Made by a program: the position numbers and the translations under genes
Part shown: one piece after another, positions 1 through 64,000 of the stretch
Layout of the letters: the number at the start of each line of letters is the position of its first letter
How positions within the stretch are numbered: the first letter of the stretch is position 1
Source: an uncultured Acidimicrobiia bacterium
Lineage (GTDB): Bacteria > Actinomycetota > Acidimicrobiia > Spongiisociales > DATADW01
Reading direction: 5' to 3'
DNA: 64,000 bases
Assembly (NCBI GenBank): GCA_963826825.1
Contig: CAWGYV010000016.1
Coordinates: 414,771-478,770 of the forward strand
The notes under the pieces: generated by a model
Seen by the model: only the letters and a program-made list of their open reading frames with translations
Told to the model about the DNA's origin: nothing
Databases searched by the model: none

Positions 1-520
1 TGACGAACTCCTGCTCGTAGAGGACGTTTTGGCGCAGGAACTGCTGGATCTTCCCCTCGACTATCCGGGGGACGACGTGCTCGGGCTTCCCTTCGTTCTC
101 GGCCTGGACGGTGGCCACCCGGCGCTCCTCCTCGAGTCGGTCCTCGGGGACGTCCTCGTTGCGGAGCCATGTGGGGTTGGCCCAAGAAACGTGTTTGGCG
201 ATCTCGTCGGCCGCGGCCATGAACTCCTCGCTCTTGGCGACGAAGTCGGTCTCCGCAGCCAATTCGACCATGGCCCCGATGGTCACCCGTCCTGCCTGAC
301 GGTGCAGGTAGGCACCGACCGCGCCCTCTGATGCCATCCGGTCGGCTCGCTTGGCCGAGGCGGCCAGCCCGCGCTCTCTCAACAACTGAAAGGCCCTGTC
401 GAAGTCGCCGCCCGCCTCGGTGAGCGCCGCCTTGGCATCCATCATCCCGACCGATGCGGTCTGTCGAAGCCGCTGGACGTCCTTGGCGGACACCGCCGGC
501 GCGCTGGTCTGCTCGGCCAT
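1..520 (-). CDS. tsf: Elongation factor Ts, N-terminal ~173 codons (3' end lies beyond the window start)
   Basis: My own minus-strand translation from ATG 520..518 reads [53 protein letters not shown]...VELAAETDFVAKSEEF, which matches the EF-Ts N-domain and core. The start overlaps the rpsB stop (TGATG), as expected for the canonical rpsB-tsf pair. It is missing from the ORF track because there is no stop inside the window. Confidence 0.93.
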   Translation of the reverse strand, partial: MAEQTSAPAVSAKDVQRLRQTASVGMMDAKAALTEAGGDFDRAFQLLRERGLAASAKRADRMASEGAVGAYLHRQAGRVTIGAMVELAAETDFVAKSEEFMAAADEIAKHVSWANPTWLRNEDVPEDRLEEERRVATVQAENEGKPEHVVPRIVEGKIQQFLRQNVLYEQEFV

Positions 521-1335
521 CAGCCGGCCGCCCCGACATCCACCGCTGCGGTGACGGGCTCCGTGACAGCGATCGCATCGGGAGTCTTGGTGGGCTCGGT
601 CTCGAGTTCGAACTCGGCAGCCGGCTCCTCGAAGGCCTCGTCTTCTTTGGAGGCGATCCCGGCACCCTCGCGCAGAGCATCAGCGATGACGCCGGCGATG
701 AGGTCGACCGCCCGGATGGCGTCGTCATTGCCGGGTATGACGTAATTCACCGGGTCGGGGTCGCAGTTGCTGTCGACCAGGGCGATGATCGGCAACCCGA
801 GGCGCGCCGCCTCGCGGATGGCCGTGTGCTCCACATTGAGGTCCACCACGAAGAGGGCTTCTGGAAGTCGGGTCAGCGACCGCACCCCGCCGAGGTTCTG
901 TTGGAGCTTGAGCAGTTCGCGCCGCAAACGGAGACGCTCCTTCTTGGGCAGCGAGTCCATCTCCCCTGACGCCTCCATCCGTTCCAGTTCCTTCATGTAG
1001 AAGATTCGCTTCTGGATGGTGGCGAAATTGGTCAGCATGCCGCCCAGCCAGCGGAAGTTGACGTACGGCATCCCGGACCGATCCGCCGCCTCGGCGATCG
1101 CCCCCTGGGCCTGGCGCTTGGTCCCCACAAAGAGGATCACGCCGCCGTCGGCGCCCAGGTCGCGGGCGAACTCGGCGGAGCGTTCGGTGAGCTCCAGGGT
1201 CTGACGGAGGTCGATGATGTGGATCCCGTTGCGCTCGCCGTATATGTAGGGGCGCATCTTTGGGTTCCAGCGCCGGGTCTGGTGCCCGAAATGGACGCCA
1301 GCCTCGAGCAGCTGCTTCATGGTGACATAGGCCAC
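520..1335 (-). CDS. rpsB: 30S ribosomal protein S2
   Basis: An intact 271-aa ORF reads [43 protein letters not shown]. It has a GTG start with GAGGAG 5 nt upstream. Confidence 0.97.
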
Positions 1336-1525
1336 GTTGGCTCCTCGGTGTTTCGGTTTCGGTTCCTCCGCCCACCGGTGCCGTCTGAGCCCGCCGATGA
1401 CGGGCGCGATGCGACGCAGCCGGGCCTACCGGCTCCTCCACCGGAGCGTTGCCGCTCCGACCGCTGGAGGACGGCGGGCGTGTGTGATGACCGGGAGTGT
1501 AAGCCCTCGCCGCTGGCCGGTGAAG

Positions 1526-2308
1526 TCAGGCTGCCGGCTCGGCCATCCTCCCGCGGAGGCTCATCACCGATTTGGTGTGGATCTGACAGACCCGGCTCTC
1601 GGTGACACCGAGCACCTTTCCGATCTCGGCCAGCGTGAGTCCCTCGAAGTAGTAGAGACCGAGCACGAGCCTTTCCCGTTCGGGGAGCCGGGATATGGCG
1701 TCATGCAGCATCTGGCGCGTTTCCTCGTCCTGGAACGCCGCCTCCGGCGTGATCCCACGGCGGTCGGGCACCATGTCGCCCGCCGATGCCCCGCCCCGCT
1801 CCGGTGAGAGCATCTGGTCGAGAGCCACCATCCCGAGATTGGAGATCTCGGCGAGGGCGTCTTGGAGGCCGTCCAACGGCATCGTCATGTGCTCGGCCAG
1901 CTCCTCCTCGCTGGGGGTGCGCTGCAGCCGGTGCTCCAACTCTGTCAGCGACCGCTCGATCTCGCGGGCACGTGCCCGCACCGACCGCGGAACCCAGTCG
2001 AGGGCCCTCAACTCGTCCAAGATCGCCCCACGGATCCGGTTTATGGCATATGTCTCGAACTTGAAGCCTCGGCTGAGGTCGAACTTGTCGATGGCATCGA
2101 TCAGACCGAACACGCCGTAGCTCACCAGGTCGGAGTTCTCGACGTTGGCCGGCAACCCGGCACCGACCCTGCCGGCGACGAACTTGACCAAAGGGGCGTA
2201 GTGGATGATCAGAGCCTCGCGCGCATGGGCGTCCGCTTTCGACTTCCACTGCTCCCAAAGGCTGCTGACCGGGTCGCTCACTTCATGCTCTCGGATGGGT
2301 GCGCTCAT
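1526..2308 (-). CDS. FliA/WhiG-family (sigma-28 type) RNA polymerase sigma factor
   Basis: Regions 2-4 are readable: [44 protein letters not shown] and [24 protein letters not shown]. The ORF-track start at 2566 is too long. The likely start is ATG 2308 ([10 protein letters not shown]), or the GTG 2 nt after the xerC stop. Confidence 0.88.
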
Positions 2309-3173
2309 AGGTGGATCTGAGATGGTGGCGGGTGACGGCAGTGTAAAGCTGTGTCGTCCCCAGTTCGCGATGGCCCAGCATCTCCTGGACGGCGCGCAGG
2401 TCGGCCCCACCCTCGAGCAGGTGGGTTGCGAATGAATGGCGGAGGGCATGGGGGAAGGTGGCCGCCCTTCGTTGGACAACCCTGCGGACTCCCCGCGAAC
2501 CGAGCGGGCCGCCGCGCTGGCCGAGCCATAGGGCATCGCCGCTCGCTGCCGACACCAAACGGCCACGGGCCGAGCGGAGGTAGGTGCTCACGGAGTCCTG
2601 GGCCGGGATGCCAAGGGGCACCACCCTCTCGGTCCCTCCCTTGCCGACAACCCTCACCCGGTCTGCACCGTGGACATCACCCACGGTCATCCCGGAAACC
2701 TCCGAGACACGCAGCCCGGTTGCGTAGAGCACCTCGAGAAGCGCTCGATCGCGCAAAGTCACCGGGTCATCGCCATCGATCTTCTCCAGCATCTCGCGGA
2801 CGGCCCGCTGAGGGAGAGCGTGCGGCAGCGAGGTGGGACGCTTTGGCCTGGCGACCTGGTCCGCCGGGTTTAGGGGCAGTTCGCCACGGCGAGTGGCGTC
2901 GGCGAAGAAGGCGCGCACCGCCGAGGCCTTGCGGGCGATCGAGCGGCGGGCGTACCGCCTCGTGTCGAGGTGAGCCAGGAAGCGTCGAACGTGCCGCCGA
3001 TCGATGTCGGCGAGCGACGCCACGCCTGATCGGTCGCAGAAGGCGAGGAATTGCGCCAGGTCGCCCCGGTAGGCGGCGACCGTGTGCGCCGACAGCCGTC
3101 GGTGGTGCCGCGCCCTGTCGAGATATGCCTCCACCGGGGACTCAGCCCACGGCGGGATAGCGGGGATGGCCAC
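2283..3173 (-). CDS. xerC: Tyrosine recombinase XerC/XerD family
   Basis: An intact 296-aa ORF carries [47 protein letters not shown] and a C-terminal LYT motif. It sits in the conserved position next to dprA. Confidence 0.9.
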
Positions 3174-3182
3174 GCCGCCATG

Positions 3183-4264
3183 CTACGGCGCACCTTCGCC
3201 TCCAGCCTGCCTCGCTCTCGCCTTGCCCGCCGTCGCCACGACCAGATCGGCCTGTCGCCGCACCCGGCCCTCCAGCTCCAGTTGCGTGATCCGGGTCAGC
3301 AGGTCAGAGATCGGCCACCCCAACTCGCCCGCCATCCAATCGACCGGTCGTCCCACCGGGCCGGCCAGCCGAACCACTGGGTCGGTGTCGGCCTCGATCC
3401 CGATGGGTGGTGGAGCCCCGGTGAGCAGCGAAAGCGCCTCGACCAGGTCTGCCTCACCGAGAACGGGATGGGCTCCGTCGCGAATGAGGAGGTTGCACCC
3501 CACCGACGTGTCGCGGTCGATGTCGCCGGGCAGGGCAAGAACCTCACGACCCTGTTCGAGCCCATATCGGGCGGTTATCAATGCCCCGCCGTCGGGCCGA
3601 GCCTCGACGACCACGACGGCGACGGCCAGCCCCGAGATGATCCGGTTGCGCAAAGGAAACCGCCAAGGCTCGGGGCGGGTGCCAGGCGGATACTCGCTCA
3701 CCACGGCCCCACCGGCGGCGAGCAGGTCCTCACCGAGCGAGCGGTGACCAGCCGGGTACCAGACGTCCACACCCGAGCCGAGAACGGCGACACCCGGCGT
3801 GGGGCCGTGAAGTCCGCCGCTGTGTGCTGCGCCGTCGACCCCACGCGCCAGGCCACTGATCACCGGCCAACCGGCCTCCGACAACGCAGCGCCGAAACGC
3901 TCCGCCAGCCGCAACCCGTAGCCCGTGGGTGTGCGAGTGCCCACGACGGCCACCCCGGGCAGTTCGGGCAACCGACCCTTGACGAAGATGACGTCCGGGG
4001 CGCCGGGGAGCGACGACATCCAGGGCGGGTACTCGGGGTCTTCCTTTGTCAGCACCGAGCAACGCGCCAATGGCGAGCCGCCGGCGCCATTCGGGTGACA
4101 TTCACCGAGGCAGCCTCACGGACTGGTTGCGTCGCTTTCACCCGCCCCGCCCGGAGCGCAGCGACCACAGCGTCCGGAGACCCGAGTGATGCCACCAGTG
4201 CCGCCGACCTCTCCGGGTGCAGCCCCACACAGGCGAGCACGAGCCGGGCGTCGGAGATCACCAC
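3183..4264 (-). CDS. dprA: DNA-processing protein DprA (frame broken once near 4050-4075 in this sequence)
   Basis: The Rossmann core lies in ORF 3183..4070: VAVVGTRTPTGYG, ISGLARGVDGAAH, FPLRNRIISGL. A SAM-like N-domain (VISDARLVLACVGLHPERSAALVASLGSPDAVVAAL) lies in the frame of ORF 4049..5125, starting at GTG 4264/4261 and overlapping the comM stop. Confidence 0.85.
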
Positions 4265-5738: not shown

Positions 5739-5868
5739 GGCGGCAACGTATGACCCACCTGCGACATTCTCCGTGGCCCCGGCGTCAACCGCTCACTGCC
5801 AGCGCGACGGGTCCACGGTGAGCGGGCGAGTGCTGTCCACACCCGTGGGCAACGACTTCTTCGCTGCC

Positions 5869-18481: not shown

Positions 18482-18497
<16 letters not shown>
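17329..18497 (-). CDS. Secreted protein with 3 SLH repeats plus an SGNH-like C-terminal domain (frame break ~17705)
   Basis: A signal peptide (MRQPVRIRLAGAAILAVTVWLIPAAPATAAG) is followed by three copies of F.DD....H..AI.A.A..GIT.GC......FCP...V.R.QMASFL.RA. The C-terminal domain (VVGFSQTEQW...DDLGHLTEAA) continues in ORF 17329..17976. Confidence 0.8.
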
Positions 18498-20259
<1,762 letters not shown>

Positions 20260-20278
<19 letters not shown>

Positions 20279-41736: not shown

Positions 41737-42965
41737 TCAGGTCCGTAGCTGCAAAGGGCAGGTCCCGGTCGGGACGCGGTTCGCCGGGCAGGCCCAGGAT
41801 CCTCTCGGCGATGATGTTCTTCTGCACCTCGTCGGTGCCCCCGCCGATCCGCAGATCCGGGCGCTCCGAGGAATGCCGAGATCCACTCTGCCGGCCTCGT
41901 CTCGCCCTTCGAGCGTTCCGAAGGGACCGAGCAGGTCGAGTCCCAGGTCGTATGCCTCGCTCGAGGAACCTCGTAGCGGCCAGTTTGACCACCGAGCCCT
42001 CTGGGCCCGGGGGTCCGGCCCTGGGCGAGTGAGGTCAGCAGGCGCAGCTTGTGGAACTGGAGGAGCCGCGACCCAATGGCGACCTGGGCGAACCGCTCCC
42101 GAACCGTGCGACGGTCCGCCGGTGCCGGTCTCGCCGATGAGTGCCTTGAGCGCCTCCACGACGCCCTCGGTGTCGAAGATGATCCCCATCCTCTCGAACA
42201 TGAAGGTGGTGATCACCACCGCCCACCCCTGGCCGACTCCTCCGACCACCCGGTCATCGGGCACCGACGACCTCGTCGAGGAACACCTCGTTGAAGTTGG
42301 ACGACCCTGTCATCTGGACGAGCGGGTTGCAATCGCACCCCGGGGTGGCGCATGTCCACCACGAAGGCGGTCAGCCCGCGGTGCTTGGGGACACCGGGAT
42401 CGGTTCGGGCGATGCAGAGCCCCCAATCGGAGCGGTGGGCGAACGTGGTCCAGACCTTCTGGCCGGAGAGCACCCATTCCTCGCCGTCACGAACCGCCCG
42501 GGTCCTCAGCCCGGCGAGGTCGGAGCCGGCGTCGGGCTCGGAGAACAGCTGACACCACACCTCGTCGCCGCGCAGCAGGGGTGGCAGAAACCGGTCGCGC
42601 TGCTCGTCGCTCCCGTGGACGAGTATCGCCGGACCGCACCACCCAGCCCGACCGCAGAGCGCATCGCGGGGCAGATCGAACCGGGTCTCCTCCTCGTCGA
42701 AGATGACCGATTCGACGAACCCGGCACCGCGGCCCCCGTATCGGGTCGGCCAAGCGATCCCTGCCCAACCCTCGCTCGGCTTTGAGACGCTGCCAGTCGA
42801 TGGCTGCGCCGGAATCGGGCCTCCTCCTCTTCAGGAGACCATTCGGCGACTATCGCCGACGGAGCTATCGGCGGGCCGAGGCCGCGTCAGGGCGTGATTC
42901 TCGAGCCAGCTTCGTGCCTCGGCGCGGAAGGCGGCTTCCTCGGCCGAATCCCTGGGGTCCACCAC
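41737..42965 (-). CDS. Acyl-CoA dehydrogenase family protein (at least 5 frame breaks; 3' end uncertain)
   Basis: The reconstruction reads VVDPRDSAEEAAFRAEARSWLENHA / IDWQRLKAE / GWAGIAWPTRYGGRG...GPAILVHGSDEQRDRFLPPLLRGDEVWCQLFSEPDAGSDLAGLRTRAV / QGWAVVITTFMFER / LRIGGGTDEVQKNIIAERILGLPGEPRPD. Confidence 0.8.
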
Positions 42966-44209
42966 AGGGAGGGTAGAGCCGGCTTCGCGATGGCGGCGTA
43001 CGCGGAGGTCCCCGGACACCGATTTGAAGTTGAGCCGGGCCGAGCGCTCGACCGGCTGCTCGGCGGGTGCGGGATCGGGGAGAACCACCCGGCCCGACAT
43101 CGTGTCGGCTTCGAAACCCAACTCGGTGCCGGTCGGGATCCCCACGGTGAAGTCGCCGCTCACCGTCTTGACCGATAGACCGGCGCCGGTGAACCGCGAC
43201 ACGCGGACATTTCCGCTCGCAGTCTTGATCTCGCTGTTGCCGTCGGCCTCGTCGACCACCACGTCGCCCGACGCGGTCTTGCAGCCAACCGCTCCCGATG
43301 CGGCCGACTCGCAGCTCGCCGGATGCAGACGAGAAACGGAGCTCGCCACCGACCTCCTCGACCCTCACGTCACCCGAAGCCGTCTTCACCGCGGCATCGC
43401 CGATGACCGACCCGAGCCGAACATCACCCGAAGCGGTATCCGCCTGGAGCGATTCCAGTCGAAGCTCCACCACCAGGTCGGCCGAGGCGAGCGACGACTC
43501 CAAGCCGCGACCCCGTCCGGGGCTGTGATCGACACCCGGTGGGCGCCGCGACTGACCCGTTATGCCACGACCCGGTGAACTCCTGTCGCACGACGACCGA
43601 AGAGCCGGTCTGACTGACGACGAACTGCTCGGGGTGGGGGCCGTCGATCGTTACTTCGACCCATTCCTCGGCGCCCTCGACGATCTTGACCTCGCCAGAG
43701 CGGAGCGAGATCTCGATCCGTGGCGGCGCCTCGACCGTGAACTGTTCGTGCCTCACAGCCGGATCGTCCCCTTCATGCTCCTCCCTGATCCGGTCTGGCT
43801 GCTCGACTTCACGTTGCTGGGCCGCCAGGGTCCGCACGACGAAGGAGTTGACCGAGTCGCCAAGCTGCTGGGCAGCGGACTCCACGGCCAGCTTCAGGTT
43901 GGCGGGGACGCGCAGCGTGATCCGGGCGTCGAGGTCATCGGGGTCGACAACCTCATCGGTGACGGCGTGCCGGATACGGAGTACCGGCTCCCCTTCCTCG
44001 AGGACCACGTCCACCTCTCTGCCGGGAAGCTGGGCGGCCACCTCGTGGGCGGCTTGCTGGGCCAACTCGTAGGCCACCTGTCGGAACGCCGGCCGGAGGG
44101 CGGTGAGCAGGGCCTGCGAAGCCTGCTCGACCGATGGGTCGCTCCCGGTCAGGGCGAGATGGTCGGCCACTGCCCCCTCGATCTGGGTGAGTGCACCCGC
44201 TGTGTCCAT
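42831..44209 (-). CDS. Ribbon-helix-helix (Arc/CopG-like) N-domain fused to DUF4097 beta-strand-repeat domain (frame breaks ~43500 and ~43340; stop not resolved)
   Basis: ARITLRVPANLKLAVESAAQQLGDSVNSFVVRTLA has an RHH pattern. Repeated TASGDVRV / SASGELRV / TASGNVRV / TVSGDFTV / SVSGDLRV units follow. The frame runs without a stop into the ACAD N-terminus. Confidence 0.65.
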
Positions 44210-44443: not shown

Positions 44444-44465
44444 TCTTGTCAAGAGGATTTTGTTG

Positions 44466-48468: not shown

Positions 48469-48501
48469 GAGAGGCGGCACGCTAGTCCCGGCACCGGTGC
48501 C

Positions 48502-48536: not shown

Positions 48537-48578
48537 CCGTGGCACCACGCTCGAGGACGGCGCTTTACCCTCGGCACG

Positions 48579-50511: not shown

Positions 50512-51893
50512 TCAGTCAGCGCTGTCCATCAGCGCTTGCCGCGCTCGGTCCATCAGCGCTTGCCGACGCTTGCCGCCGAGCAACCCGGGTAGCCCGGGTA
50601 TGCCCTTTCCCTCCGCCACCATCTTCATGAGCCGCTGTGTCTCTCCGAACTGCTTGAGCAGCCCGTTGACCTCCTGCGACGTTGTGCCCGAGCCCGACGC
50701 GATTCGCCGCTTCCTGCTGCCGTTGATCAGCTTGGGATTTTGGCGCTCCTCGAGCGTCATCGATCGGATGATCGCCTCGACCCGTCCCACGTCGCGGTCC
50801 GAAACCTCGACATTGCGGAGGAGGGACCCGGCGCCGGGAAGCATAGCAACCACCTGGTCGAGCGACCCCATCCGTCTTCACCTGCTGGAACTGATCGAGG
50901 AAGTCGTCGAAGGTGAAGCTGGCGGTCCTCATCTTGTCGGCGAGCTTCTCTGCCTGCTGGGCATCCCAGGTCTGCTCCGCCTTCTCGATCAGGGTGAGCA
51001 CATCGCCCATGCCCGAGGATCCGCGAAGCCATGCGATCGGGGTGGAACACCTCGAAGTCGTCGAGCTTCTCCCCCACTCCGGCGAACTTGATCGGGCTCC
51101 CCGTCACCTCGCGCACAGATATGGCCGCCCCGCCCCTCGCATCCCCGTCGAGCTTGGAGAGAACGATCCCGGTCAAGTCGACGTACTCGAGAAAGCCCTT
51201 GGCGACGTTTACCGCGTCCTGGCCGGTCATGGCGTCGACGACGAGCAGCGTCTCGGTGGGGTTGGAGGCCTTGTCCAGATCGGAGAGCTCGCCCATCAGC
51301 TGGCGGTCGATCTGCAGTCTCCCCGCGGTGTCAACCACCACGACGTCGCGGCCCAATCGGTTGCCTCCTTGAGGGCCGCCTTGACGAGACGGGCGGGTCG
51401 CTGGGTGCGGTCGGTGAACACCGGGAACGCCGGCACGCTCGCCGAGCGTCTGCAGTTGCTCGATCGCCGCCGGACGCTGCAGGTCGGCTGCCACCAGCAT
51501 CGGCTGCTTTCCCTGGCGGACCAGATGGCGCGAGAGCTTGGCCGCGGATGTGGTCTTTCCCGACCCCTGCAGGCCGACCATGAGGATCACGGTGGGAGGG
51601 GAAGGGGCCATGGATAGCCGCGCCGGTTCGGTCCCGAGAGTCGCCACCAACTCCTCGTTGACGATCTTCACCACCTGCTGACCGGGGGTGAGGCTCTTGG
51701 TCACCTCGGCGCCGACGGCACGTTCCTTCACCCGGTTGAGCAGATCGCGGGCCACGACGACGTTGACGTCCGCTTCGAGCAGGGCCAGCCTGATCTCGCG
51801 CAGCGATGCGTCCACGTCGGCCTCGGAGAGCCGGCCCTTGCCGCGCATCCGGTCGAAGATCCCGCCGAGCCGATCGGTGAGTGTGTCGAACAC
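50512..51893 (-). CDS. ffh: Signal recognition particle protein Ffh (frame breaks ~51422, ~51361, ~51005, ~50875)
   Basis: MFDTLTDRLGGIFDRMRGKGRLSE, MVGLQGSGKTT, DTAGRL and LSKLDGDARGGAA are present. The M-domain reads GDVLTLIEKAE...FTFDDFLDQ / MGSLDQVVAMLPG...MTLEERQNP in other frames. Confidence 0.93.
50524..50565 (-). repeat. In-frame 24-bp-period tandem duplication at the ffh 3' end
   Basis: gtccatcagcgcttgccg occurs at 50524..50541 and 50548..50565. It encodes RQALMD twice (..KRRQALMDRARQALMDSAD-stop). Confidence 0.9.
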
Positions 51894-51999: not shown

Positions 52000-52878
52000 A
52001 TGGATAACCTCTGGGTGGTCGTTCTATCGGCCGTGGTAGCGCTCGTTGTTGGGGGCATAGCGGGCTATTCACTGGCCTACTTCCGACTCCGGCGTCTCGA
52101 AGAGCGCTGGCGATCATTCGTTGCCAGGCACAAGCATGAGGCTGAGATCGCCCAGGGGCGCGCCACCGAGCTGGCCAACCGTCTGGAGGCGGTTCAATCG
52201 GGCGCCGAAACGGGCGAACTGCAGACCGCCCTCGATGAGGCGCAGCGCGAGCTGGCCAGAGCGGAGGGACAGGCCGCTCTGCTCAGACCCGAGGTCGATG
52301 CCCTCCACCGCCTGCTCACCGAGAAGGAGCAGGAGATCCTCCTGCTCAAGGAGTCCATCAGGGAGTCGGCGGGACCGACGGCCATCGAAGGATCAACGAG
52401 GCAGCCGGTGGCTGCGCCGGTCGATGCCGGTCATCGGAGGTGGCCGAGCCGGTGACAGCGCCCGTCGTCGAGGAGGTGGCCGAGGAGGTGAGGGAGCCGG
52501 TGGCTGCGCCGGTCGTCGAGGTCGAGGATGATGTGTCCGAGATCGTCGCGCCCCCCGAAGCAGATCCCGTCCTCCCACCGCCCAACGAGTTGCCCCCCGA
52601 GTTCGCCCCACCCGTGTCACCTGTCCCGAGCGCACGGCGAGGAAGCGGCAAGGCTCAACGGGGAAGTCGAGGATGATCTCACCGCCATTTCCGGGATAGG
52701 CCCGGCAACGGCCCGCCGGCTCCGCCACGAGGGACTCACCAGCTTCGCCCAGATCGCCGAGCTCAACGACGAGGCGATCGACGAGCTCGCACCCAAGCTG
52801 AAGAACAGGGCCGAACGCATCAGACGCGACCGCTGGGTGGAGCAGGCGAGAAAGCTGGCCGCGGAACGCGCCGATTGA
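52000..52878 (+). CDS. Membrane-anchored coiled-coil protein with C-terminal helix-hairpin-helix-like domain (frame breaks ~52440 and ~52640)
   Basis: The N-terminal TM is MDNLWVVVLSAVVALVVGGIAGYSLAYF. The coiled coil reads ELQTALDEAQRELARAEGQAALLRPE, followed by an acidic Pro-rich spacer. The C-terminus reads DDLTAISGIGPATARRLRHEGLTSFAQIAELNDEAIDEL. Confidence 0.55.
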
Positions 52879-52906
52879 ATCTCGCCGCTCTTCACCCAGA
52901 TCCCAG

Positions 52907-55642
52907 ATGACGGGTCCGCCGGCGGTCGACCGCGACGAGGCGCTGCGAGCCGACATCCGCCGCCTCGGCACCCAGCTTGGCGAGGCGCTCGCCCGCCAAC
53001 ACGGCACCGAACTGCTCGACCTGGTCGAGCACGTGCGAGCGCTCTGCAAATCGATACGACACGACCACGACCCAGAAGCGACCAAGCAACTCGATGCGAC
53101 GCTTGAGCTCGCTCGATCTCGGGACCGTCATCCAACTGGTACGAGCCTTCACCGCCTACTTCTATCTGGCCAACGTCGCCGAGCAGACCCATCGGGTTGG
53201 TGAGATGGTCGACGAGGACCGCCGCTTCGAAGCCACGGTTGATCGCATCATCGAAGCCGGACTCGACAAGGACCTGATCGCGTCGGTCGTGTCCAGGCTC
53301 GAGCTGCGCCCCGTCTTCACCGCCCACCCGACCGAGGCCGCCCGCCCGACCACGCTCAACAAGCTGCGCACAGTGGCCGACCTGCTCGACGACCGGCTCG
53401 ACCCACGGGCAACCGAAGCCGACCGGGTGCGGATCGACCGCAGGGTCGCCGAGGTGATCGACCAGATCTGGGAAACCGACGAGCTACGCATGGACAAGCC
53501 CGAGCCGGTGGACGAGGCCCGCTCGGCGATCTTCTACTTCGACCGGTTGGAAAGCGACGTCTTTCCTGATCTGGGCGAGGAGTTGGCGCTCCAGTTGGAA
53601 CGGCTCGATCCCAACCGGGACCGCACCCAGACACCGATCCGATTCGGGACCTGGGTTGGTGGCGACCGCGACGGCAATCCCTCGGTCACCGCAGATGTCA
53701 CCCGGCGGGTTCTCGAACTGCAGCACGACCATGGTCTTACGGCGGCTGATCGAGGCGGTCGAGCGGCTCGCCGAGGATCTGTCGATCTCCGACAGGACGT
53801 GGAATGTCTCCGCCGAGTTGATGGCATCCCTGGAGCGCGACCGCGAGATGCTCCCTCTCACCTGGCAGCGTTTCCACGGACTCAACGCCCACGAGCCCTA
53901 CCGGCTAAAGCTCGCCTACATCCACAGCCGGCTGGGCGCCACCAGAACGCGAATCCGCGAGGGCGCCCGGCATCAGCCCGGGGTCGACTATGCGGGGCCA
54001 TCCGAGCTGGCCGCCGAGCTCGAGTTGTTGCGCTCATCGCTGTGCGAGAACGCCGGTCTGCTCATCGCAGAGGGTTCGGTGATGCGGCTGATCAGGGTGG
54101 TGGCCACGTTCGGGTTCCACCTCGCCACGATGGATGTCCGCGAGCACGCCGACCGGATCCACGATGTCGTCGCTCAACTCCTCGACAGAGTCGGTATCGC
54201 GTATGCGGACCGCAGCTCCGAGGAGCGTCTCGAGTTGCTGGCCAGGGAGCTCGCCGAGGGCAGACCCTTGGCAACCGCGGCTGCCCGCCTTGGTGAAGGT
54301 GCCGAGGAAACCATGGCCACTTTCGCAGGCATCGCCTCCGCCCTCGACCGGTATGGGCCCGCGGTCATCGAGTCGTACATCGTCTCGATGACGAGGGGAG
54401 CCGACGACATCCTCGCCGCGGCGGTGCTGGCTCGTGAGGCCGGGACTGATCGACCTCCACGACGGTCTTGCCCGGGTGGGGTTCGTGCCGCTCTTCGAGA
54501 CCATCGACGAGTTGAGACGCTGCGGCGAGATCCTCGACCAGTTGCTCTCCGACCTCTCCTACCGCCAGGTGGTCTCGCTGCGGGGCGATGTCCAGGAGGT
54601 GATGCTGGGGTATTCCGACTCGAACAAGCAGGGCGGGATAACCACCAGCCAGTGGGAGATCTACAAGGCGCAGCGACAGCTGCGGAACACGGCGCGCCAC
54701 CACGGGGTCACGCTCCGGCTATTCCACGGACGCGGCGGCACCATCGGCCGGGGTGGAGGCCCGACCCACCAGGCGATCCTCGCCCAGCCATTCGGCACAA
54801 TCGACGGGCCGCTCAAGGTGACCGAGCAGGGCGAGGTCATCTCCGACAAGTACGGGCTCCCCGGGCTGGCGGCGCGCAACCTCGAGCTGGCAGCGGGCTC
54901 GGTGCTCGAGGCGTCGCTGCTCCACCGGTCGTCGCGCCAGCCCAAGGAGGTGCTCGACCGCTGGACCGAGGCGATGGAGGTGGTGTCCGATGCGGCGTAC
55001 TCGTCATACCGCACCCTGGTTGACGACCCCGGGATGGTGCGGTTCTTCCTCTCCGCCACCCCGGTCGAGGAGTTGGCATCGATGAACATCGGGTCGCGTC
55101 CCTCGCGACGTCCCGGCAGCGGAACGGGGCTCGACGACTTGCGCGCCATACCTTGGGTCTTCGGATGGACCCAGTCACGCATGATCATCCCCGGCTGGTA
55201 CGGGGTGGGCACCGGTCTCGTCGAGGCACGCAAACGCGGTTACGGGGAAGTGCTCGACGAGATGCACGAACAGTGGTGGTTCCTCCAAACCTTCGTCTCG
55301 AACGTCGAGATGACGCTGACCAAGGCCGACCTGGGGATCGCCCGACGGTACGTGGAGGAACTGGTCGACCCCGAAGTGCAACAGCTACTCGACATGATCC
55401 TCGAGGAGCACGACACGACCATGGGCGAGGTCCTCCGGCTCACCGACCGGCCCGGGCTGCTCGCCGGCAACCCATTGCTCCGCCGCACCCTCGAGGTGCG
55501 CGACGTCTACCTCGACCCGCTCAACTACCTCCAGATCGCCCTCCTGGCGAGAAGCAGGGCGGGCGAGACCGATCCACTTCTGCAACGGGCCCTCCTGCTC
55601 ACTGTGAACGGAATCGCCGCTGGGATGCGCAACACCGGCTGA
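52907..55642 (+). CDS. ppc: Phosphoenolpyruvate carboxylase (frame breaks ~53120, ~53740, ~54440)
   Basis: [47 protein letters not shown] and the C-terminal [11 protein letters not shown] are spread over four frames. Confidence 0.93.
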
Positions 55643-56639: not shown

Positions 56640-56710
56640 TCCAACGTCTCCCGATCGCAATCCGACCGTGGTCCGATGACACCCACCCTACGATCGTCCA
56701 TGGTTCCCCT

Positions 56711-58554
56711 ATGACGACTAGAGAGTCGCCCCTTCAGGTCTTGCGCGACGGCTACCGACTGGTCGCCGGGTTCGTGCGCGTCCACCCTGTCTCGTTCCTG
56801 GTGGCCGTGAGCGGGGCAGCCATCTTCGCCTCAGGCGTGATTCTCTCGGCGTGGGTCATCGGCCGGGCAACCGATCAGCTCATCATCCCCGTGCTCGACG
56901 AGGGAGCCTCGCCCTCCGGTCTGGTCCTCCCCGTCGTACTCGCAATATTGGCGGTGGCGGTGTGGAAGGCGGCCGGGATCGTGCTCCGCCGTACCGGTGC
57001 GGGGTGGCTCCAGTTCCAGACAAGGGCCGATGTCCGCAAGAAGCTGATCTCCCACCAGCTTCGGCTCGGGCTGAGCTGGTTCCGTCGCCAGTCGGTGGGC
57101 GATCTCCTCGCGGTGAGCGAGACCGACGCCAACCAGGGCACCTTCATCCTCGCTCCGCTCCCCTTCGGCACCGGCGCCGTCCTACTCCTGGTGGGCACGA
57201 TCGTCGTGATCTTCGCCCTCGACCCGATCCTCGCCCTGCTCACGTTTGTCGCGCTCGTTGTGGTGACGGCGGTGGACGTGCGCGGCTCGTGGAAGTTGTT
57301 CGAGGCCTTCCAGGAGGTGCAGCGGCTGCGCGGCGAGACCAGCGCGGTAGCGCACGAGAGCTTCGACGGTGCCCTGACGGTCAAGGCGCTGGGAAGGGAG
57401 GACTTCGAGACCGAGCGGTTCTCTCGGGCAGCGCACAGGCTGCGTGACAAGGTGATCACCGTCGAGCGGGCCGCGGCGACATACCGGTCGGTGGTCGAGT
57501 CGTTTCCCGCCGTGACCACGGTTCTCGTGCTGACCTTCGGAACGATGCGGATCGCCGCCGGCGCCATCACGCCCGGCGAGTTGGTGTCGGTTGCCTATCT
57601 GCTCTCGCTCATCTCGGTCCCGATGCGGCTGATCGGCTACGTGTTGTGGGACCTCGCCGAGAGCCTGGCTGGCTGGCGGCGCGTTCGGGAGGTTCTCGAC
57701 GCCGACGAACTGGTGGAGCACGGCTCGCTGCTCGCAGTGGACGACGAGTCCGGGGCAAGGGTCGGAGGAGAGGGCATCGGGTTCGGGTACGACGAGGGTG
57801 AGCACCATCATCTCCGAGCTCGAGCTGGACGTCCCACCGGGAAAGGTGGTGGCGATGGTGGGCCGCACCGCTTCGGGCAAGTCCACCCTCGCCGTTCTGC
57901 TCGCTCGGCTTTGGGATCCCTCCACCGGAACCATCCATCTCGACGGTCGCGACTTGAGATCGTTCGCCCGCTCCGAGCTGGCTAGAGAGGTCGCCTTCGT
58001 TTCCCAGGAGACTTTCCTCTTCGACGACACGGTGCGGGGCAACATCACACTCGGCCTCACCATCCCCGACGACGAAGTCAGAGAAGCCGCCCGTCTCGCC
58101 GGTGCCGACGAGTTCATCAACGAGTTGCCCGCTGGCTTACGACACCCGGATCGGGGAACGCGGCACCTCGTTATCCGGTGGCCAGCGGCAACGTCTGGCG
58201 CTGGCACGTGCCCTGGTCCGCCGTCCCCGGCTCCTCATCCTCGACGACGCCACCTCGGCGGTGGACCCCTCGGTCGAGTCCGAGATCCTGCGGGGACTGC
58301 GCCGAGCCGGGCTGCCGTCCACCGTCGTGGTGGTCGCCTACCGGCGCTCGAGCATCGTGCTGGCCGACGAGGTGATCTACGTCGAGGACGGCCGGGTCGT
58401 GGCGCAGGGAAGCCATGCCGAACTGCTGGATAGGGCCCCCGGGTACGCCCGATTGCTGCGCGCCTATGACGAAGATGCCGCAGTCCGCAAACAGGAGGCC
58501 GAGGAGCGAAGGCTTGACCGGGCTCATCGGGCGCCCGACGAGGTGCGCACGTGA
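56711..58554 (+). CDS. ABC transporter permease/ATP-binding fusion protein, exporter type (frame breaks ~57810 and ~58150)
   Basis: A six-TM N-domain is followed by Walker A GRTASGKST, the signature LSGGQRQRLALARAL and Walker B LILDDATSAVD. It overlaps the start of its partner gene. Confidence 0.85.
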
Positions 58555-60329
58555 GCACCATCGCCCCTTCCGCGACGACGACCTCGGCCCTGGCGCGCGC
58601 CTTCCGACTGGCGCCGGCACTTGGCCGCGGACTCTGGTTCACGATCGTGCTCGCTTTTGCCGGCACCGCCTCGCAGGTGGTGGTGCCGATCCTCATCCAG
58701 CAGATGACCGACAACGAGATCCTCGCCGAGGGCGGCGTGGACGTTCAGGGCGCAGTCACCCTCGGCGGTATCGCCCTTCTCGCCATCGCTGCCGGGGTGG
58801 CTGCGCAACGAGCGGCATTGGCGCGGCTCGCCACCTCGTCGGCCACCGGGCTGGCCGACCTCAGGGTCGGCACCTTCCGCCATCTCCACCAACTTTCGAT
58901 GCTCCATGTCCAGTCGCAGCGCCGTGGTGCCCTCGTGGCGCGGGTGACGTCGGACCCGGAAACCATCCAGGACTTCATGGGTTGGGGCGGCGTGGGCATG
59001 TTGGTCGGATCGGCGCAGGTGGTCCTCGCCTTCACGGTGATGGCCATCTACCGCTGGTACCTGGCGCTGCTCGTCCTCGGTGGTGTGGTGCTCTACGCAC
59101 TCCTCCTCCTCTGGTTCCAACGCATACTCCGCCGGGCACACGATCACGTCAGGGAACGGGTCGCCGACAGCCTCTCGGCATTGAGCGAGGCGATCGCCGG
59201 TCTCCCGGTGGTGCGCGCCTATGGGGCAGAGAGGGCCACCACCGCCAAGGTGGAGGGGGCGCTCGACGCCCAGTTCGAGGCCGAGTTCCGCACCGCTCGG
59301 CTCGGCGCCGGGCTGTTCTCCTCGGCCGACCTCTTCGCCGGGACACTCACCGCGGCGGTGGTTGCGGTCGGGGTGATCAGCGGTGTCGCCGACGGGACAT
59401 CTGCCGGGACGCTTCTCGCCTTCCTCTTCCTTCTCAACCTCTTGGTGGAGCCGGTCCAGATCCTGGTGGAGACGCTCGATCAGGCACAGACCGCAGGTGC
59501 CGGGTTGCGACGCATCCTCGGGGTCCTCGACACTCCGGTGGATGTGGCCGACCCCCCCGGCGGGGTGGACCTGCCCGATGGCGGGCTCGATGTCCAGATG
59601 GAGGCGGTCAACTACCGCTATCCCGATGGGGCCGAGGATGTCCTCAGCGACGTATCGGTGCAGATCGACTCGGGGCGGCGGGTCGCCGTGGTGGGCGAAA
59701 CCGGATCGGGGAAGACCACGTTCGCCAAGCTGGTCACCAGGCTCTTCGACCCTATCGGGGGCGAGGTCATCGTGGGGGGAATCCCGGTGGACCGGGTCAG
59801 GTTCGCATCGCTCCGCTCCCGCGTGGCATATGTCCCCCAGGAGGGCTTTCTCTTCGACGCCTCGGTAGCGGACAACGTCCGCTACGGGCGTCTCGCCGCC
59901 AGTGACGACGGCGTGCGGGCCGCCTTCTACGACCTCGGTCTCGACGAGTGGATGGATTCACTGCCTGAGGGGTTGGACACCTTCGTCGGCGAACGGGGTG
60001 GCCGATTGTCCGCCGGGGAGCGGCAGCTTGTCGCCCTTGTGCGCGCCTGGATCACCGACCCCGACCTGCTCGTCCTCGACGAGGCAACCTCTGCGGTGGA
60101 CCCAGCCCTCGAGGTCCAGCTCCGACGTGCCATCGAACGCCTCACCGCCGGCCGGACCTCGATAACCGTCGCCCACCGCCTGTCGACGGCCGAGGCCGCC
60201 GACGAGATTCTGGTATTCGACCAGGGGCGTCTCGTGGAGAGGGGCAACCACGCCGAGCTGCTCGAAGGGGGCGGCGTCTACGCCCGTCTCCATGCCGACT
60301 GGGCGGCAGGCACCGTCAGCGTCGCCTGA
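58551..60329 (+). CDS. ABC transporter permease/ATP-binding fusion protein, exporter type (heterodimer partner)
   Basis: Intact, 592 aa. It carries GETGSGKTT, LSAGERQLVALVRA and LLVLDEATSAVD. Confidence 0.9.
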   Translation: MSTIAPSATTTSALARAFRLAPALGRGLWFTIVLAFAGTASQVVVPILIQQMTDNEILAEGGVDVQGAVTLGGIALLAIAAGVAAQRAALARLATSSATGLADLRVGTFRHLHQLSMLHVQSQRRGALVARVTSDPETIQDFMGWGGVGMLVGSAQVVLAFTVMAIYRWYLALLVLGGVVLYALLLLWFQRILRRAHDHVRERVADSLSALSEAIAGLPVVRAYGAERATTAKVEGALDAQFEAEFRTARLGAGLFSSADLFAGTLTAAVVAVGVISGVADGTSAGTLLAFLFLLNLLVEPVQILVETLDQAQTAGAGLRRILGVLDTPVDVADPPGGVDLPDGGLDVQMEAVNYRYPDGAEDVLSDVSVQIDSGRRVAVVGETGSGKTTFAKLVTRLFDPIGGEVIVGGIPVDRVRFASLRSRVAYVPQEGFLFDASVADNVRYGRLAASDDGVRAAFYDLGLDEWMDSLPEGLDTFVGERGGRLSAGERQLVALVRAWITDPDLLVLDEATSAVDPALEVQLRRAIERLTAGRTSITVAHRLSTAEAADEILVFDQGRLVERGNHAELLEGGGVYARLHADWAAGTVSVA

Positions 60330-60351
60330 TCAACCGGATAGCTTCCGGGGG

Positions 60352-61658
60352 ATGAACGCCGTCGAGTTGATAGAGCGGAAGCGCGACCGGGGGGCGCTCA
60401 CCGCCGACCAGATCCGATGGTTCATCGCAGGGGTCGCCGATGGGAAGATCCCCGACTACCAGGCGGCGGCGATGCTCATGGCGGTGTTCATCAACGGGAT
60501 GGATCCCGACGAGCTGGCGACCTGGACCGACGCCATGCTCCACTCCGGAGAGGTGCTCGACCTCTCCTCGATCGAGGCGCCGAAGGTGGACAAGCACTCG
60601 ACCGGTGGCGTGGGTGACAAGGTGAGCATCCCGCTCGCACCAATCGTGGCCGTCTGCGGCGCCGCGGTCCCCATGATGAGCGGGAGGGGGCTGGGGCACA
60701 CCGGTGGCACCCTGGACAAGCTGGAGTCGATCCCGGGCTTCACCACCGCTCTCGAGCCCGACCGGTTCAACCAGGTGCTCGCCGCCGAGGGTCTCGTCCT
60801 GGCGGGCCAGTCGGAAAGCCTGGTCCCCGCCGACAGGCGGCTCTATGCGCTGCGAGACGCCACGGGCACCGTCCCTTCGATCCCTCTGATCGCTTCGTCG
60901 ATCATGTCGAAGAAGCTCGCCGAGGATCTCGACGCCCTCGTGCTCGATGTCAAGGTGGGGTCGGGTTCGTTCATGGGCGACATCGAGCGTGCCCGCCTGC
61001 TGGCCACCACCATGGTCGGGCTGGGGGCGGCACACGGGCTGACCGTCGAGGCGGTCCTCACCGACATGAGCGAGCCGCTCGGGGTGGAGGTGGGCAACGC
61101 CAACGAGGTCGCAGAGTCGATCGAGGTTCTGCGCGGGGAAGGGCCCGACGACCTCATCGAGTTGGTCACCGACCTCGCCGCCCGGATGCTCACCGCGGCG
61201 GGCATCACCGGCTCGGCGGACGAGGCGGCGCTCTCGGTTGCAGGCGCCATCGAGTCGGGTGCTGCGCTCGACGCCTTCCGCCGCGTCGTCGCCGCCCAAG
61301 GCGGTGACACCTCGGTGGTGGACGATCCGGCCGGCCTCCCATCGGCACCCGAGATCGCCGAGGTGACGGCCGGACGTGCAGGCTGGGTGACGAGGTGCGA
61401 TGCCCGTACCGTGGGCGTGGCTGCGATGCGGCTAGGTGCCGGGAGAGAACGCAAGGAGGACGAAGTGGACCATGGTGTCGGGATCACGCTCCTCGCCAAG
61501 GCGGGCGACCCGGTGGACAAGGGACAGCCAGTGGCCAGGGTTCGCTACCGGTCCCGAGGAACGGTGGGAGGACACGGCTCCGTTCCTCGCCGGGGCCTGG
61601 CAGGTTGGTGACGACGCCCCGAGCACTCAGCCCTCTCGTGATCGAACGGGTCGGCTGA
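60352..61658 (+). CDS. deoA: Thymidine/pyrimidine-nucleoside phosphorylase (frame breaks ~61545 and ~61625)
   Basis: MNAVELIERKRDRGALTADQIRWFI, KHSTGGVGDKVS, SGRGLGHTGGTLDKLE and SIMSKKLAE are present. The shifted tail is ...PLVIERVG-stop at 61656..61658. Confidence 0.9.
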
Positions 61659-62509
61659 TGCCACCTGAGCTACATCCCGCCGGCACGATTCGAGACGGTC
61701 CGGGCCGGCGCCGACCTGATCGCCGAGCGCACCGGGCGCACCAGGCACGATCTCGCCCTGGTCTTGGGTAGCGGACTCGGCGGCTATGCCGCCACGCTGT
61801 CCGATCCGGTCGAAGTTGGGCTACGACGAGATTCCGGGGATGCCGGTCCCCGCGGTGGAAGGGCACGGCGGCGTCCTCGTGTCGGCGATGGCAAATGGTT
61901 ACCCGGTGCTTGCCTTCACCGGGCGGGTACACGCCTACGAAGGGTGGGACCTGGCGGAGGTCGTCTTTGGGGTGCGGGCCGCAGTCCTCGCCGGTTGCCG
62001 CACGGTTGTGCTCACCAACGCCGCCGGCGGTATCGGCGAAGGGCTTTCGCCGGGAGACCTGGTCGTGATCCGAGACCACCTCAACCTCACAGGACGCACC
62101 CCGCTCCAGGGCCGCAACGACGAAAGGCTCGGGCTGCGGTTCCCCGACATGACCGAGGTGTACACCGCCGGGCTGCGCCAACGCCTGGCCGAGACCGCTG
62201 CGGGTCTCGGCGAGTCACTCGGAAGCGGTGTCTATGCCTGGCTGCTCGGTCCCGCATACGAGACGCCCGCCGAGGTGGAGATGGCGCGCCGTCTCGGCGC
62301 CGACCTGGTGGGCATGTCAACGGTGCCCGAGGCGATCGCGGCCCGTCACATGGGTGCCAGGGTGGTCGGTATCTCGCTGGTGACCAACCTCGCCGCCGGG
62401 ATGTCGGCCAACCCGCTGTCACACGACGAGGTGCAGGAGACCGCCACCGCCGCCCAAGGAGCGGTTCACGCGGCTGCTCGACGCCGCCCTCCCCGTCCTC
62501 GTCCCCTGA
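61658..62509 (+). CDS. punA: Purine nucleoside phosphorylase, PunA (trimeric PNP) type (frame breaks ~61690, ~61830, ~62455)
   Basis: LALVLGSGLGGYA / VEGHGGVLV..FTGRVHAYEG..VLTNAAGGI..GMSTVPEAIAARHMG / KERFTRLLDAALPVLVP-stop at 62507..62509. The ATG overlaps the deoA stop (TGATG). Confidence 0.85.
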
Positions 62510-62511
62510 TC

Positions 62512-63299
62512 TCAGATACCGAGCACCTGATCGAGCCCGACAGTCGACGCCGACGGCTCCCACCACATGCCGGATGGACAGAACCGCACCTAGGGCGAAC
62601 GACGCATAGGTGGTGCTCTGGTGGATCACCGAGAACAACTCACCGCTGTTGGAGAAGGCGACCTCCTGTTGCGAGATGACACCTTCGAGGCGGACGAGTG
62701 GACTCGCACCCCGCCGACATCGGCACCCCTCGCCCCGGCGACGAGTTCCGAGGAGGCGGTCGAGGACGACCCTCCTGCAGCGGCGATCCGTGAGGCGGTG
62801 TTCAAAGACGTGCCCGACGGGGCGTCGGGCTTGTCGGCGTGGTGGCGCTCGATCACCTCGGCCTGCTCGAAGTGGGGCGCAGCCAGCTCGGCGAAAGCGC
62901 GCCATCAGCACCGCTCCCACCGAGAAGTTGGGCACCACCAGACAGCCCGGTCTTTCGTCCCCCCAGAGCCGGCGCAGCTCGTCGAGCCGTTCCTCGGTGA
63001 ACCCGGATGTCCCGACCACGGCTCCAAACCCCCGCCGGCGCCAAGCGCGCAGGTTGTCCATGACCACCGTCGGGTTGGTCGACTCGACCATCACGTCGGC
63101 CTCGACCTCATCGGGATCGGCAACCACCTCCAAACCGGCGAAATGAACTGCCCCCGCGGTTCGGGTTGTAGGCGCCGGTGAGCTCGAGGTCGTCGGCGGC
63201 CTCGACGGCCTCGGCCACCGCGGTGGCGAGACGACCAGGCGCCCCGGAGATCGCGACACGTATCAGACAGGAGCCCCCATCGGCGGCCGACAGTACCAT
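62512..63299 (-). CDS. dapB: 4-hydroxy-tetrahydrodipicolinate reductase (about 4 frame breaks)
   Basis: [16 protein letters not shown] / [27 protein letters not shown] / [14 protein letters not shown] / [33 protein letters not shown] lie in different frames. The shifted tail is VGLDQVLGI-stop at 62512. Confidence 0.85.
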
Positions 63300-63328
63300 C
63301 CGGCGTCCTCCCCACCCGGAGCCTCCTG

Positions 63329-64000
63329 GTGCCCGATCTCCCGCAAACCGCTGCCGTCGTCGTCGTCGGTGGAGGCGTGACCGGTACCAGTGCCCTCTAC
63401 CACCTGACGGCGGCTGGGTGCCAGGACGTGCTGTTGCTGGAAAGGGACACGCTCTGCGCGGGCTCCACCAGCAAGGCGGCAGGGGGCATCCGCGCCCAGT
63501 TCTCCGACGAGCTCAACATCAGGATGGCGCTGGAGAACATCCGTCGCTTCGAGCGATTCGGTGACGAGATCGGGGTGGACATCGACTTCAAGCAGTGGGG
63601 CTACCTGATCATGGTCGGATCGGGCTCGCTGCCGCAGTTCCGGGAGGCGCTCGACCTGCAGCACCGGCTCGGCGTCCCGTCGGAGCTGCTCGGTCCCGAC
63701 GAGATCGCCCGGATCGTCCCCCAACTGGCCACTGACGATCTGGCTGGAGCCACCTTCTGTCCCATAGACGGTTACGCCACCCCCGAGAGCGTGGGCCAGG
63801 GATATGCCGGAGCCGCGACCCGCCGCGGGGCTCGGGTGATCCAGGGCTGCGAGGTCACCGTCGGTGACCGTCGAGGAAGGAAGCGTCACCGGAGTGGCCA
63901 CGACGATGGGCACGATCTCGTCACCTCTTGTGATCCTCGCCGCCGGTGTGTGGTCGGTGGATCTGGCCGCGGCGGCGGGGCTCCACCTCCCGGTGACACC
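63329..64000 (+). CDS. FAD-dependent oxidoreductase (DAO / sarcosine-oxidase-beta-like), 5' part running off the window end (frame break ~63860)
   Basis: My own translation from GTG 63329 (GGAG upstream) is VPDLPQTAAVVVVGGGVTGTSALYHLTAAGCQDVLLLERDTLCAGSTSKAAGGIR (dinucleotide-binding GxGxxG). Confidence 0.75.
   Translation, partial: MPDLPQTAAVVVVGGGVTGTSALYHLTAAGCQDVLLLERDTLCAGSTSKAAGGIRAQFSDELNIRMALENIRRFERFGDEIGVDIDFKQWGYLIMVGSGSLPQFREALDLQHRLGVPSELLGPDEIARIVPQLATDDLAGATFCPIDGYATPESVGQGYAGAATRRGARVIQGCEVTVGDRRGRKRHRSGHDDGHDLVTSCDPRRRCVVGGSGRGGGAPPPGDT

Follow-up and report, generated by a model that had tools for sequence, protein, structure and literature searches.

Frame breaks along a soil actinobacterial contig are very probably consensus errors of a long-read metagenome assembly

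The genes of the 64,000-nucleotide stretch of DNA analysed here, referred to below as the window, are interrupted by frequent frame breaks, which are very probably consensus errors that arose when noisy long reads were assembled into a metagenome contig. What look like pseudogenes and gene fusions are therefore almost certainly artefacts, and the genes of the organism show marks of ongoing purifying selection. The window is a soil actinobacterial contig with a GC content of 67% and Acidimicrobiia-like sequence. The first-pass annotation had already attributed the breaks to assembly indels and not to biology. This attribution is upheld by the restriction of the indels to the window, by their absence from soil contigs at all the sites spanned, by the lack of nonsense codons, by the preserved codon-position bias and by the same signature in related Nanopore assemblies.

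Number and distribution of the indels

Indels were identified in multiple alignments of the window with three to four related genomes (83-95% identity to the window), covering 8.4-64 kb, and break positions were determined with a purpose-written, frameshift-aware protein-to-DNA dynamic-programming alignment. The closest public relatives were drawn from a collection that holds one genome per GTDB species. The use of GC3 and ORF filters alone as a gene caller was abandoned as too noisy, because shadow ORFs are long at 67% GC. The coding tally refers to 48 high-confidence aligned coding intervals, from which trmD, rplS, an MFS transporter and the first ABC transporter of a pair were excluded.

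The multiple alignments revealed 86 window-private indels of 1-2 bp within 8.4-64 kb. The frameshift-aware alignment added three in the same region and at least five in dprA/comM, bringing the total to at least 94 private one- or two-base indels, about 1.5 per kb of window. None of them is found in any of the three to five aligned relatives (83-95% identity). Sixty-two fall within the high-confidence coding intervals and affect 24 of the 48, and about 75 are estimated for coding sequence once the left-out genes are allowed for. The breaks comprise both +1 and -1 shifts, some private indels lie outside the aligned coding intervals, and 53 break clusters in the frameshift-aware alignment have support from at least two genomes. 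The comparison with relatives by frameshift-aware alignment, which the first-pass annotation had proposed as a check, thus confirmed the breaks and tabulated their positions. The earlier figure of 60-70 frame breaks is about right for coding breaks (62-75) but low for all indels, and the rate of about one per kb, correct in that breaks are frequent, was slightly understated.

The indels are significantly clustered (index of dispersion 2.95 over 2-kb bins, p = 7e-7), as expected from the uneven error rate suspected earlier, and hot spots alternate with clean stretches of 3-5 kb. The longest indel-free stretch (43801-49148, 5.3 kb) carries an M15 peptidase gene and two radical-SAM CofH/MqnC-like genes (Pfam). 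Another (17702-22465, 4.8 kb) contains a beta-helix protein of 598 aa (18482-20278, minus strand; Pfam CEMIP_beta-hel) that shows no frameshift relative to four relatives, including one contig with a short-read-assembler name. A third (58138-61555, 3.4 kb) contains the second ABC transporter of the pair (58551-60329, plus strand, 592 aa; Pfam ABC_membrane and ABC_tran), which is equal in length to its orthologue in MFD05747.bin.2.155 and has no private indel. Both genes are full length, in agreement with their earlier description as intact. At the start of the window, the region containing tsf (partial), rpsB, a sigma-70 factor and a xerC-like recombinase (1-4086; Pfam) showed no window-specific break in a frameshift-aware comparison with at least 30 Acidimicrobiia genomes, a comparison of lower power that included one close relative.

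Genes affected by frame breaks

The signal recognition particle GTPase gene ffh (50553-51893, minus strand; Pfam SRP54_N and SRP54) carries five private indels when compared with intact orthologues of 445 aa: +1 at 50563, 50875, 51011 and 51421, and -1 at 51360. Alignment with relatives shows that one G is missing at 51360 and one C is extra at 51421. A +1/-1 pair had been described near 51422 and 51361, and both peptides quoted for it are exact: the minus strand reads VFTDRTQRPARLVKAALKEA over 51362-51421 and GVHRPHPATRPSRQGGPQGGN over 51360-51422. In ppc (PEP carboxylase; 52802-55639, plus strand), three +1 insertions at 53103, 53737 and 54440 are backed by three to four genomes, including intact 910-aa copies in a JGI genome and in MFD00962.bin.2.219. 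When the private indels are taken out, full-length and continuous reading frames are obtained for ffh and ppc. At trmD and rplS, private insertions at 40205 and 39753 create a false fusion ORF of 377 aa (39685-40818, minus strand) that contains the Pfam domains tRNA_m1G_MT (aa 25-218) and Ribosomal_L19 (aa 271-363). The signal peptidase I gene lepB (38998-39751, minus strand; Pfam Peptidase_S26 on the orthologue of a relative) is broken by +1 at 39155, -1 at 39223 and +1 at 39398, each break being backed by three to four genomes.

The hot spot is an acyl-CoA dehydrogenase gene (41744-43159, minus strand; Pfam Acyl-CoA_dh N, M and C domains), which within 1.4 kb has ten private +1 insertions (41854, 41892, 41963, 42006, 42116, 42266, 42334, 42773, 42811 and 42870). 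The Mg-chelatase-like ATPase gene comM (4261-5776, minus strand; Pfam ChlI, Mg_chelatase and Mg_chelatase_C) has at least four private +1 insertions, at 4486, 5147, 5353 and 5711, backed by 8-20 independent Acidimicrobiia genomes that include contigs with short-read-assembler names. Four breaks (+1 at 62546, -1 at 62694, +1 at 62897 and +1 at 63141) were found in dapB (62515-63302, minus strand; DapB_N and DapB_C in the relatives' gene call). The neighbouring purine nucleoside phosphorylase gene (61615-62506, plus strand) has three private insertions (61680, 61813 and 62453), and the thymidine phosphorylase gene upstream of it (60292-61611) has one, at 61556. An enoyl-CoA hydratase gene (35159-36529, minus strand; Pfam ECH_1) contains five private indels (35470, 35810, 35938, 36049 and 36065). 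In the first ABC transporter of the pair (56640-58554, plus strand), with private insertions at 57802 and 58137, the window ORF 56711-57985 retains ABC_membrane only, whereas its orthologues of 613 aa have both ABC_membrane and ABC_tran. Most of the gene-by-gene claims made from the first reading hold: three breaks in ppc, at least three in lepB (three found), at least five in the acyl-CoA dehydrogenase (ten found), about four in dapB and the fusion of rplS with trmD, which both domains of the single ORF substantiate. For comM, repeated breakage is confirmed, and the five breaks originally counted become at least four.

Selection, soil sequences and related assemblies

The view that the indels record genuine recent decay, with roughly every second gene carrying a true frameshift mutation, is very improbable. 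It can appeal to the fact that the indels stand in the deposited sequence and that all of them lie on the terminal branch of the window, which is compatible with very recent events, and the window shares with decaying genomes such as Mycobacterium leprae and recent host-restricted pathogens a large number of frameshifted ORFs. Unlike those genomes, however, it shows neither nonsense codons, nor deletional bias, nor relaxed selection; its breaks are private and they reach core translation and secretion genes. Internal nonsense codons were absent from all 16,490 codons aligned, whereas at least 62 frameshifts were counted. Seven in-frame stop candidates were considered and discarded, since each lies at a gene boundary or towards the upstream end of a stop-to-stop reference ORF. 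The third codon position holds 68% of the window-private substitutions in broken genes, read in the corrected frame, and 73% in intact ones (21, 9 and 63 substitutions at positions 1, 2 and 3 in broken genes; 28, 12 and 107 in intact genes), a bias that is unchanged by breakage in a test that is blind to very recent decay. Essential single-copy genes are not spared, since ffh has five breaks, lepB has three, and the broken rplS and trmD are joined in one ORF. Natural bacterial indels are biased towards deletions and concentrated in runs, the opposite of the roughly 9:1 excess of insertions outside homopolymers that is observed here.

Further evidence against decay came from sequences obtained independently of the contig. 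Soil-metagenome contigs with at least 93% identity lacked the indel at each of the 12 private sites that they spanned (39753, 41398, 42266, 43800, 50027, 51011, 51360, 51421, 61556, 62453, 62897 and 63141). The base inserted at 39753, in the trmD/rplS fusion, is absent from three soil runs, and soil contigs are likewise free of the ffh indels at 51011, 51360 and 51421, of the dapB bases at 62897 and 63141, and of those at 61556 and about 62453 in the two phosphorylase genes; a contig across 42189-42331, in the acyl-CoA dehydrogenase gene, shows one gap. In most of these comparisons, all the indels displayed by the soil contigs coincide with window-private sites. The best public runs had only 10-21% of sampled 31-mers in common with two queried stretches of the window, and the covering contigs are therefore from related strains and not from the same genome. 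These runs are presumably short-read data. An exact look-up of the intact 598-aa protein gave no match, and neither did two scans of JGI metagenome contigs for exact DNA patterns, one that included the ffh insertion and one in which the insertion was optional.

The related assemblies divide according to how they were produced. Five related MAGs from the Nanopore-only Microflora Danica long-read catalogue of Danish soils each have their own set of private frameshifts, at 0.27-0.75 per kb, and these are insertion-biased and non-homopolymer, as in the window. The relatives used as references thus carry errors themselves: ppc is split in three of the five and ffh in one. By contrast, 12.4 kb of relatives whose contigs bear short-read-assembler names, or that come from JGI, contained no private frameshift; the pooled rate of the Nanopore relatives predicts about 5.4 (P ~0.005). 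Flye and a single Medaka round were used to build the Microflora Danica long-read MAGs, whose authors report Nanopore-associated errors at lower coverage (PMC12313526). Other studies found that short-read polishing is needed for bins below 40-fold coverage (PMC9262707) and that, in soil data, frameshift errors are commoner with ONT than with HiFi (PMC13087279).

Error profile and origin of the breaks

About 85% of the errors are single-base insertions, and strict flank criteria gave 58 insertions versus 6 deletions. The inserted base matches neither neighbour in 57% of cases, compared with 53% if insertion were random. The run that results from the insertion is one base long in 33 of the 58 cases, two in 21 and three in 4; random insertion would give 53%, 28% and 13%, and 6% for runs of at least four. 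A homopolymer origin was rejected on the basis of this lack of run enrichment (57% singletons versus 53% at random), and the earlier suggestion that several breaks sit in short runs did not survive the same comparison. Around the indel sites, no 3- or 4-mer was enriched after correction for multiple testing, so that a sequence or methylation motif was also rejected as the cause.

The notion that the DNA is correct and that frames are restored by recoding (programmed ribosomal frameshifting, transcriptional slippage or RNA editing) is the least credible of all the readings considered. Programmed sites such as those of prfB, dnaX and IS-element transposases also need a +1 or -1 shift to give the full protein, but they are conserved and have a defined slippery signal. 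The sites in the window are private, none being conserved even in relatives at 94-95% identity, and share no motif or slippery context. Recoding would also have to operate at up to ten sites in one 1.4-kb gene, in both directions, and would leave the private indels outside aligned coding intervals unaccounted for. Taken as a whole, the proposal that the indels are real and that the lineage tolerates or decodes about one frameshift per kb, through very recent mass pseudogenisation or a new recoding mechanism, is highly unlikely; a methodological error mode is the more likely reading.

Consensus error as the preferred explanation leaves the source of the errors to be considered. The most likely route would be Nanopore reads assembled with Flye and given one Medaka round, without short-read polishing, from coverage that was low or varied locally; differences in depth or read quality from place to place might then account for the clustering. 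The process would add single bases, and less often drop them, at essentially random positions. Gene callers would then split true genes and at times fuse neighbours, the genes of the organism itself probably being intact. The assignment to Nanopore is made because the signature matches that of the related MAGs, although insertion-rich, non-homopolymer errors are not the textbook profile of the platform. As in Nanopore-only assemblies with indel-truncated proteins of the type revealed by IDEEL, about half of the window genes are split or fused, essential genes are affected and the rate is uneven; polishing would be expected to remove such indels, and the closest relatives, Flye and Medaka MAGs from Danish soil, have the same defect. 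Unlike classical Nanopore errors, which occur in homopolymers and are often deletions, those of the window are mostly insertions that show no preference for runs. The insertions appear random as regards the base, its context and the length of the run. A noisy platform of another kind, such as PacBio CLR with its insertion-rich random errors, or computationally added noise would explain this no less well than the classical Nanopore profile does. Such an origin is unlikely, given that the same signature appears in five Nanopore-only MAGs and that uniform random noise would not give the observed clustering.

It is possible, though a good deal less probable than not, that low depth is not the whole cause and that the artefact arose mainly because a mixture of co-occurring strains was collapsed, with mixed read piles at polymorphic sites keeping extra bases. 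Within 6 nt of private indels, window-private substitutions reach about twice the density seen elsewhere (17 of 914 sites versus 480 of 50,227), a two-fold enrichment that could also be alignment noise beside gaps. The clustering of the indels and the presence of several related populations (90-97% identity) together in the same soil metagenomes point in the same direction. Against this, the window is about 93-97% identical to its two closest relatives all along its length, and no mosaic pattern follows the density of indels. The mixture overlaps with the main explanation and is not an alternative that excludes it. A related idea, that indel-rich segments are near-identical to a relative, was dropped: the inverse relation between indel density and private substitutions was not significant (rho = -0.28, p = 0.16) and vanished when per-kb identity to each relative was used.

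Consensus error of a long-read contig involves no biological novelty, and the value of the finding is as a warning on database quality. Systematic, random, non-homopolymer insertion errors may be present in low-depth Nanopore/Flye/Medaka soil MAGs, including GTDB species representatives. Until this contig is polished, calls of pseudogenes, gene fusions or missing genes on it are unreliable. The same defect, at a lower rate, affects the closest public relatives, and protein catalogues built on them inherit the fragments. Quality checks and correction tools that target homopolymers would overlook most of the errors, since the majority are insertions outside homopolymers.

Frame breaks counted against related genomes

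The closest relatives of the window in a GTDB collection with one genome per species are MAGs of uncultured Acidimicrobiia/Actinomycetes from the Microflora Danica (MFD) project, namely MFD09267.bin.2.26 (~95% nucleotide identity), MFD00962.bin.2.219 (~94%), MFD05747.bin.2.155 (~86%) and MFD00962.bin.2.16 (~83%). They are joined by one contig of the ENA assembly ERZ25039531 (~87% identity) and by fragments (SMAG_U6761 and JGI Ga0683585_0086431) with short-read-assembler contig names or JGI origin. All relatives are collinear with the window and none is identical to it. The window has a GC content of 67% and contains no tRNA genes. Multiple alignments of the window with four relatives (8.4–44.7 kb) and with three (42.8–64 kb), from which gaps found in the window alone were listed, yielded 86 such private events of 1–2 bp between 8.4 and 64 kb: 70 insertions of 1 bp, four of 2 bp, 11 deletions of 1 bp and a single deletion of 2 bp. 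Because gene calls from ORFs cannot be relied on at such a GC content, a frameshift-aware protein-to-DNA alignment was written for the purpose and queried with 226 ORFs of the relatives in their true coding frame. This approach, which the first-pass annotation had proposed as a check of its claim of about one frame break per kb, recovered 53 break clusters with at least two supporting genomes; nearly all match alignment-derived events, and three events were additional (13564, 35938 and 41892). For 1–8.4 kb, covered by a single close relative, about 30 more distant Acidimicrobiia genomes were used, many of them with short-read-assembler contig names. Here, comM carries four +1 breaks, each supported by 8–20 Acidimicrobiia genomes, and dprA carries one. 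The total amounts to at least 94 events in the window, or ~1.5 per kb. High-confidence coding intervals contain 62 of them, distributed over 24 of 48 intervals; as the interval table omits trmD, rplS, an MFS transporter and the first ABC transporter, the number of coding breaks is estimated at ~75.

The breaks reported earlier were confirmed as such. Translation reproduced both peptides quoted for ffh (50553..51893, minus strand), where, in comparison with three relatives, a G is missing from the window at 51360 and an additional C is present at 51421; this +1/−1 pair belongs to a full count of five. Three breaks each in ppc (52802..55639, plus strand) and lepB and four in dapB agree with the first reading, the acyl-CoA dehydrogenase gene (ACAD; 41744..43159, minus strand) holds 10 where at least five had been seen, and comM has at least four where five had been counted. 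The false fusion of trmD and rplS was confirmed, with one ORF (39685–40818, minus strand) carrying both TrmD and ribosomal L19 domains. The two genes described as intact (18482..20278 and 58551..60329) are so.

Evidence on the origin of the frame breaks

A cell cannot have ffh, rplS, trmD and lepB all null, and all four carry breaks in the window. Full-length frames of ffh and ppc return once the private indels are taken out. Across 16,490 aligned codons no internal nonsense codon was found, versus at least 62 frameshifts. With the frames of the broken genes corrected, private substitutions at codon positions 1, 2 and 3 number 21, 9 and 63 in these genes and 28, 12 and 107 in the intact ones. 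Each event is unique to the branch that leads to the window. Independent sequence came from contigs of public soil-metagenome runs, representing related populations, that were aligned to four parts of the window. Soil contigs with at least 93% identity span 12 private sites, and at none of these do they share the window's extra or missing base. In three of the four parts, every indel shown by these contigs coincides with a private site, and alignment over stretches without private indels was gap-free.

Natural bacterial indels are deletion-biased and associated with runs, whereas those of the window are the opposite in both respects. Under strict flank criteria, insertions outnumber deletions by 58 to 6, with an overwhelming dominance of single-base insertions. 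Errors of the homopolymer type, suggested by the first-pass placement of several breaks in short runs, were not borne out: in 57% of cases the inserted base differs from both of its neighbours (random insertion would give 53%), runs of three or more are rarer than expected at insertion sites, and no 3-mer or 4-mer is enriched around the events. The events are clustered (index of dispersion 2.95 over 2-kb bins, p = 7e-7), with a hot spot of 10 events in 1.4 kb in the ACAD gene and longest event-free stretches of 5.3 kb (43.8–49.1 kb), 4.8 kb (17.7–22.5 kb), 3.5 kb and 3.4 kb. Identity to the relatives along the window revealed no mosaic that tracks indel density. Between 8400 and 64000, the frequency of private substitutions is about twice as high up to 6 nt from a private indel (1.9%) as elsewhere (0.96%). 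As to the cause of the clustering, this excess hints at low-quality or strain-heterogeneous pile-ups, and substitution errors may accompany the indel errors; alignment noise next to gaps could also account for it. The evidence as a whole supports the interpretation of the frame breaks as an artefact and not a biological feature.

The same artefact in related Nanopore assemblies

The artefact of the window recurs in related public MAGs built from Nanopore reads. Five of them each have their own private frameshifts, at 0.27–0.75 per kb of aligned coding sequence, and these are insertion-biased and mostly outside homopolymers. In 12.4 kb from relatives that have short-read-assembler contig names or originate from JGI, no private frameshift was found; the pooled rate of the Nanopore relatives predicts ~5.4 (P ~0.005). 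A ppc product of 910 aa is encoded both by MFD00962.bin.2.219 and by a JGI contig, and the gene is split in three other assemblies: into 323 + 402 aa in ERZ25039531 contig_78164, into 483 + 333 + 126 aa in MFD05747.bin.2.155, and on a further 481,753-bp contig that holds a 402-aa fragment. MFD05747.bin.2.155, which is among the genomes drawn from the one-genome-per-GTDB-species collection, also has ffh split into 216 + 304 aa.

For the long-read MAGs of the MFD project, Nanopore reads alone were assembled with Flye, followed by a single round of Medaka, and their authors noted Nanopore-associated errors in MAGs of lower coverage (PMC12313526). From the match between the error signature of the MFD relatives and that of the window, we infer that the window assembly is also of Nanopore origin. 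The frame breaks are best explained as consensus errors left in a long-read metagenome assembly that had low or locally variable depth and was not polished. This explanation fits the reports that Nanopore bins under ~40-fold coverage require short-read polishing (PMC9262707) and that frameshift errors in soil data are still commoner in ONT than in HiFi (PMC13087279).

Other segments of the window

An 829-aa ORF with two sets of C-methyltransferase domains (21031–23520, minus strand) looks like a second false fusion because of a private insertion at 22466, and MFD00962.bin.2.219 has two ORFs (394 and 404 aa) at this place. The fusion might alternatively be real in some lineages, as MFD00962.bin.2.16 has an 834-aa ORF there. 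This ORF lies within a gene cluster for the cell envelope and for glycan modification (6500–27200), part of which overlaps the cleanest stretch of the window and which encodes two sulfotransferases, GT4 and GT2 glycosyltransferases, C-methyltransferases, an NDP-sugar epimerase/dehydratase, a nucleotidyl transferase, an SLH-domain protein and a 598-aa beta-helix protein. The segment 27400–29700 is variable: the alignment to MFD09267.bin.2.26 skips from 27586 to 29090, MFD00962.bin.2.219 matches poorly (82–87% identity) and a block of 128 bp at 28658 is private to the window. It may correspond to a strain-specific insertion or to a local mis-assembly; an ORF at 28462–29610 (minus strand) emerges upon indel correction. 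Finally, two neighbouring radical-SAM genes of the CofH/MqnC type (45424–48537, minus strand) are intact in the window and would fit biosynthesis of F420 (FO synthase) or of menaquinone by the futalosine pathway.
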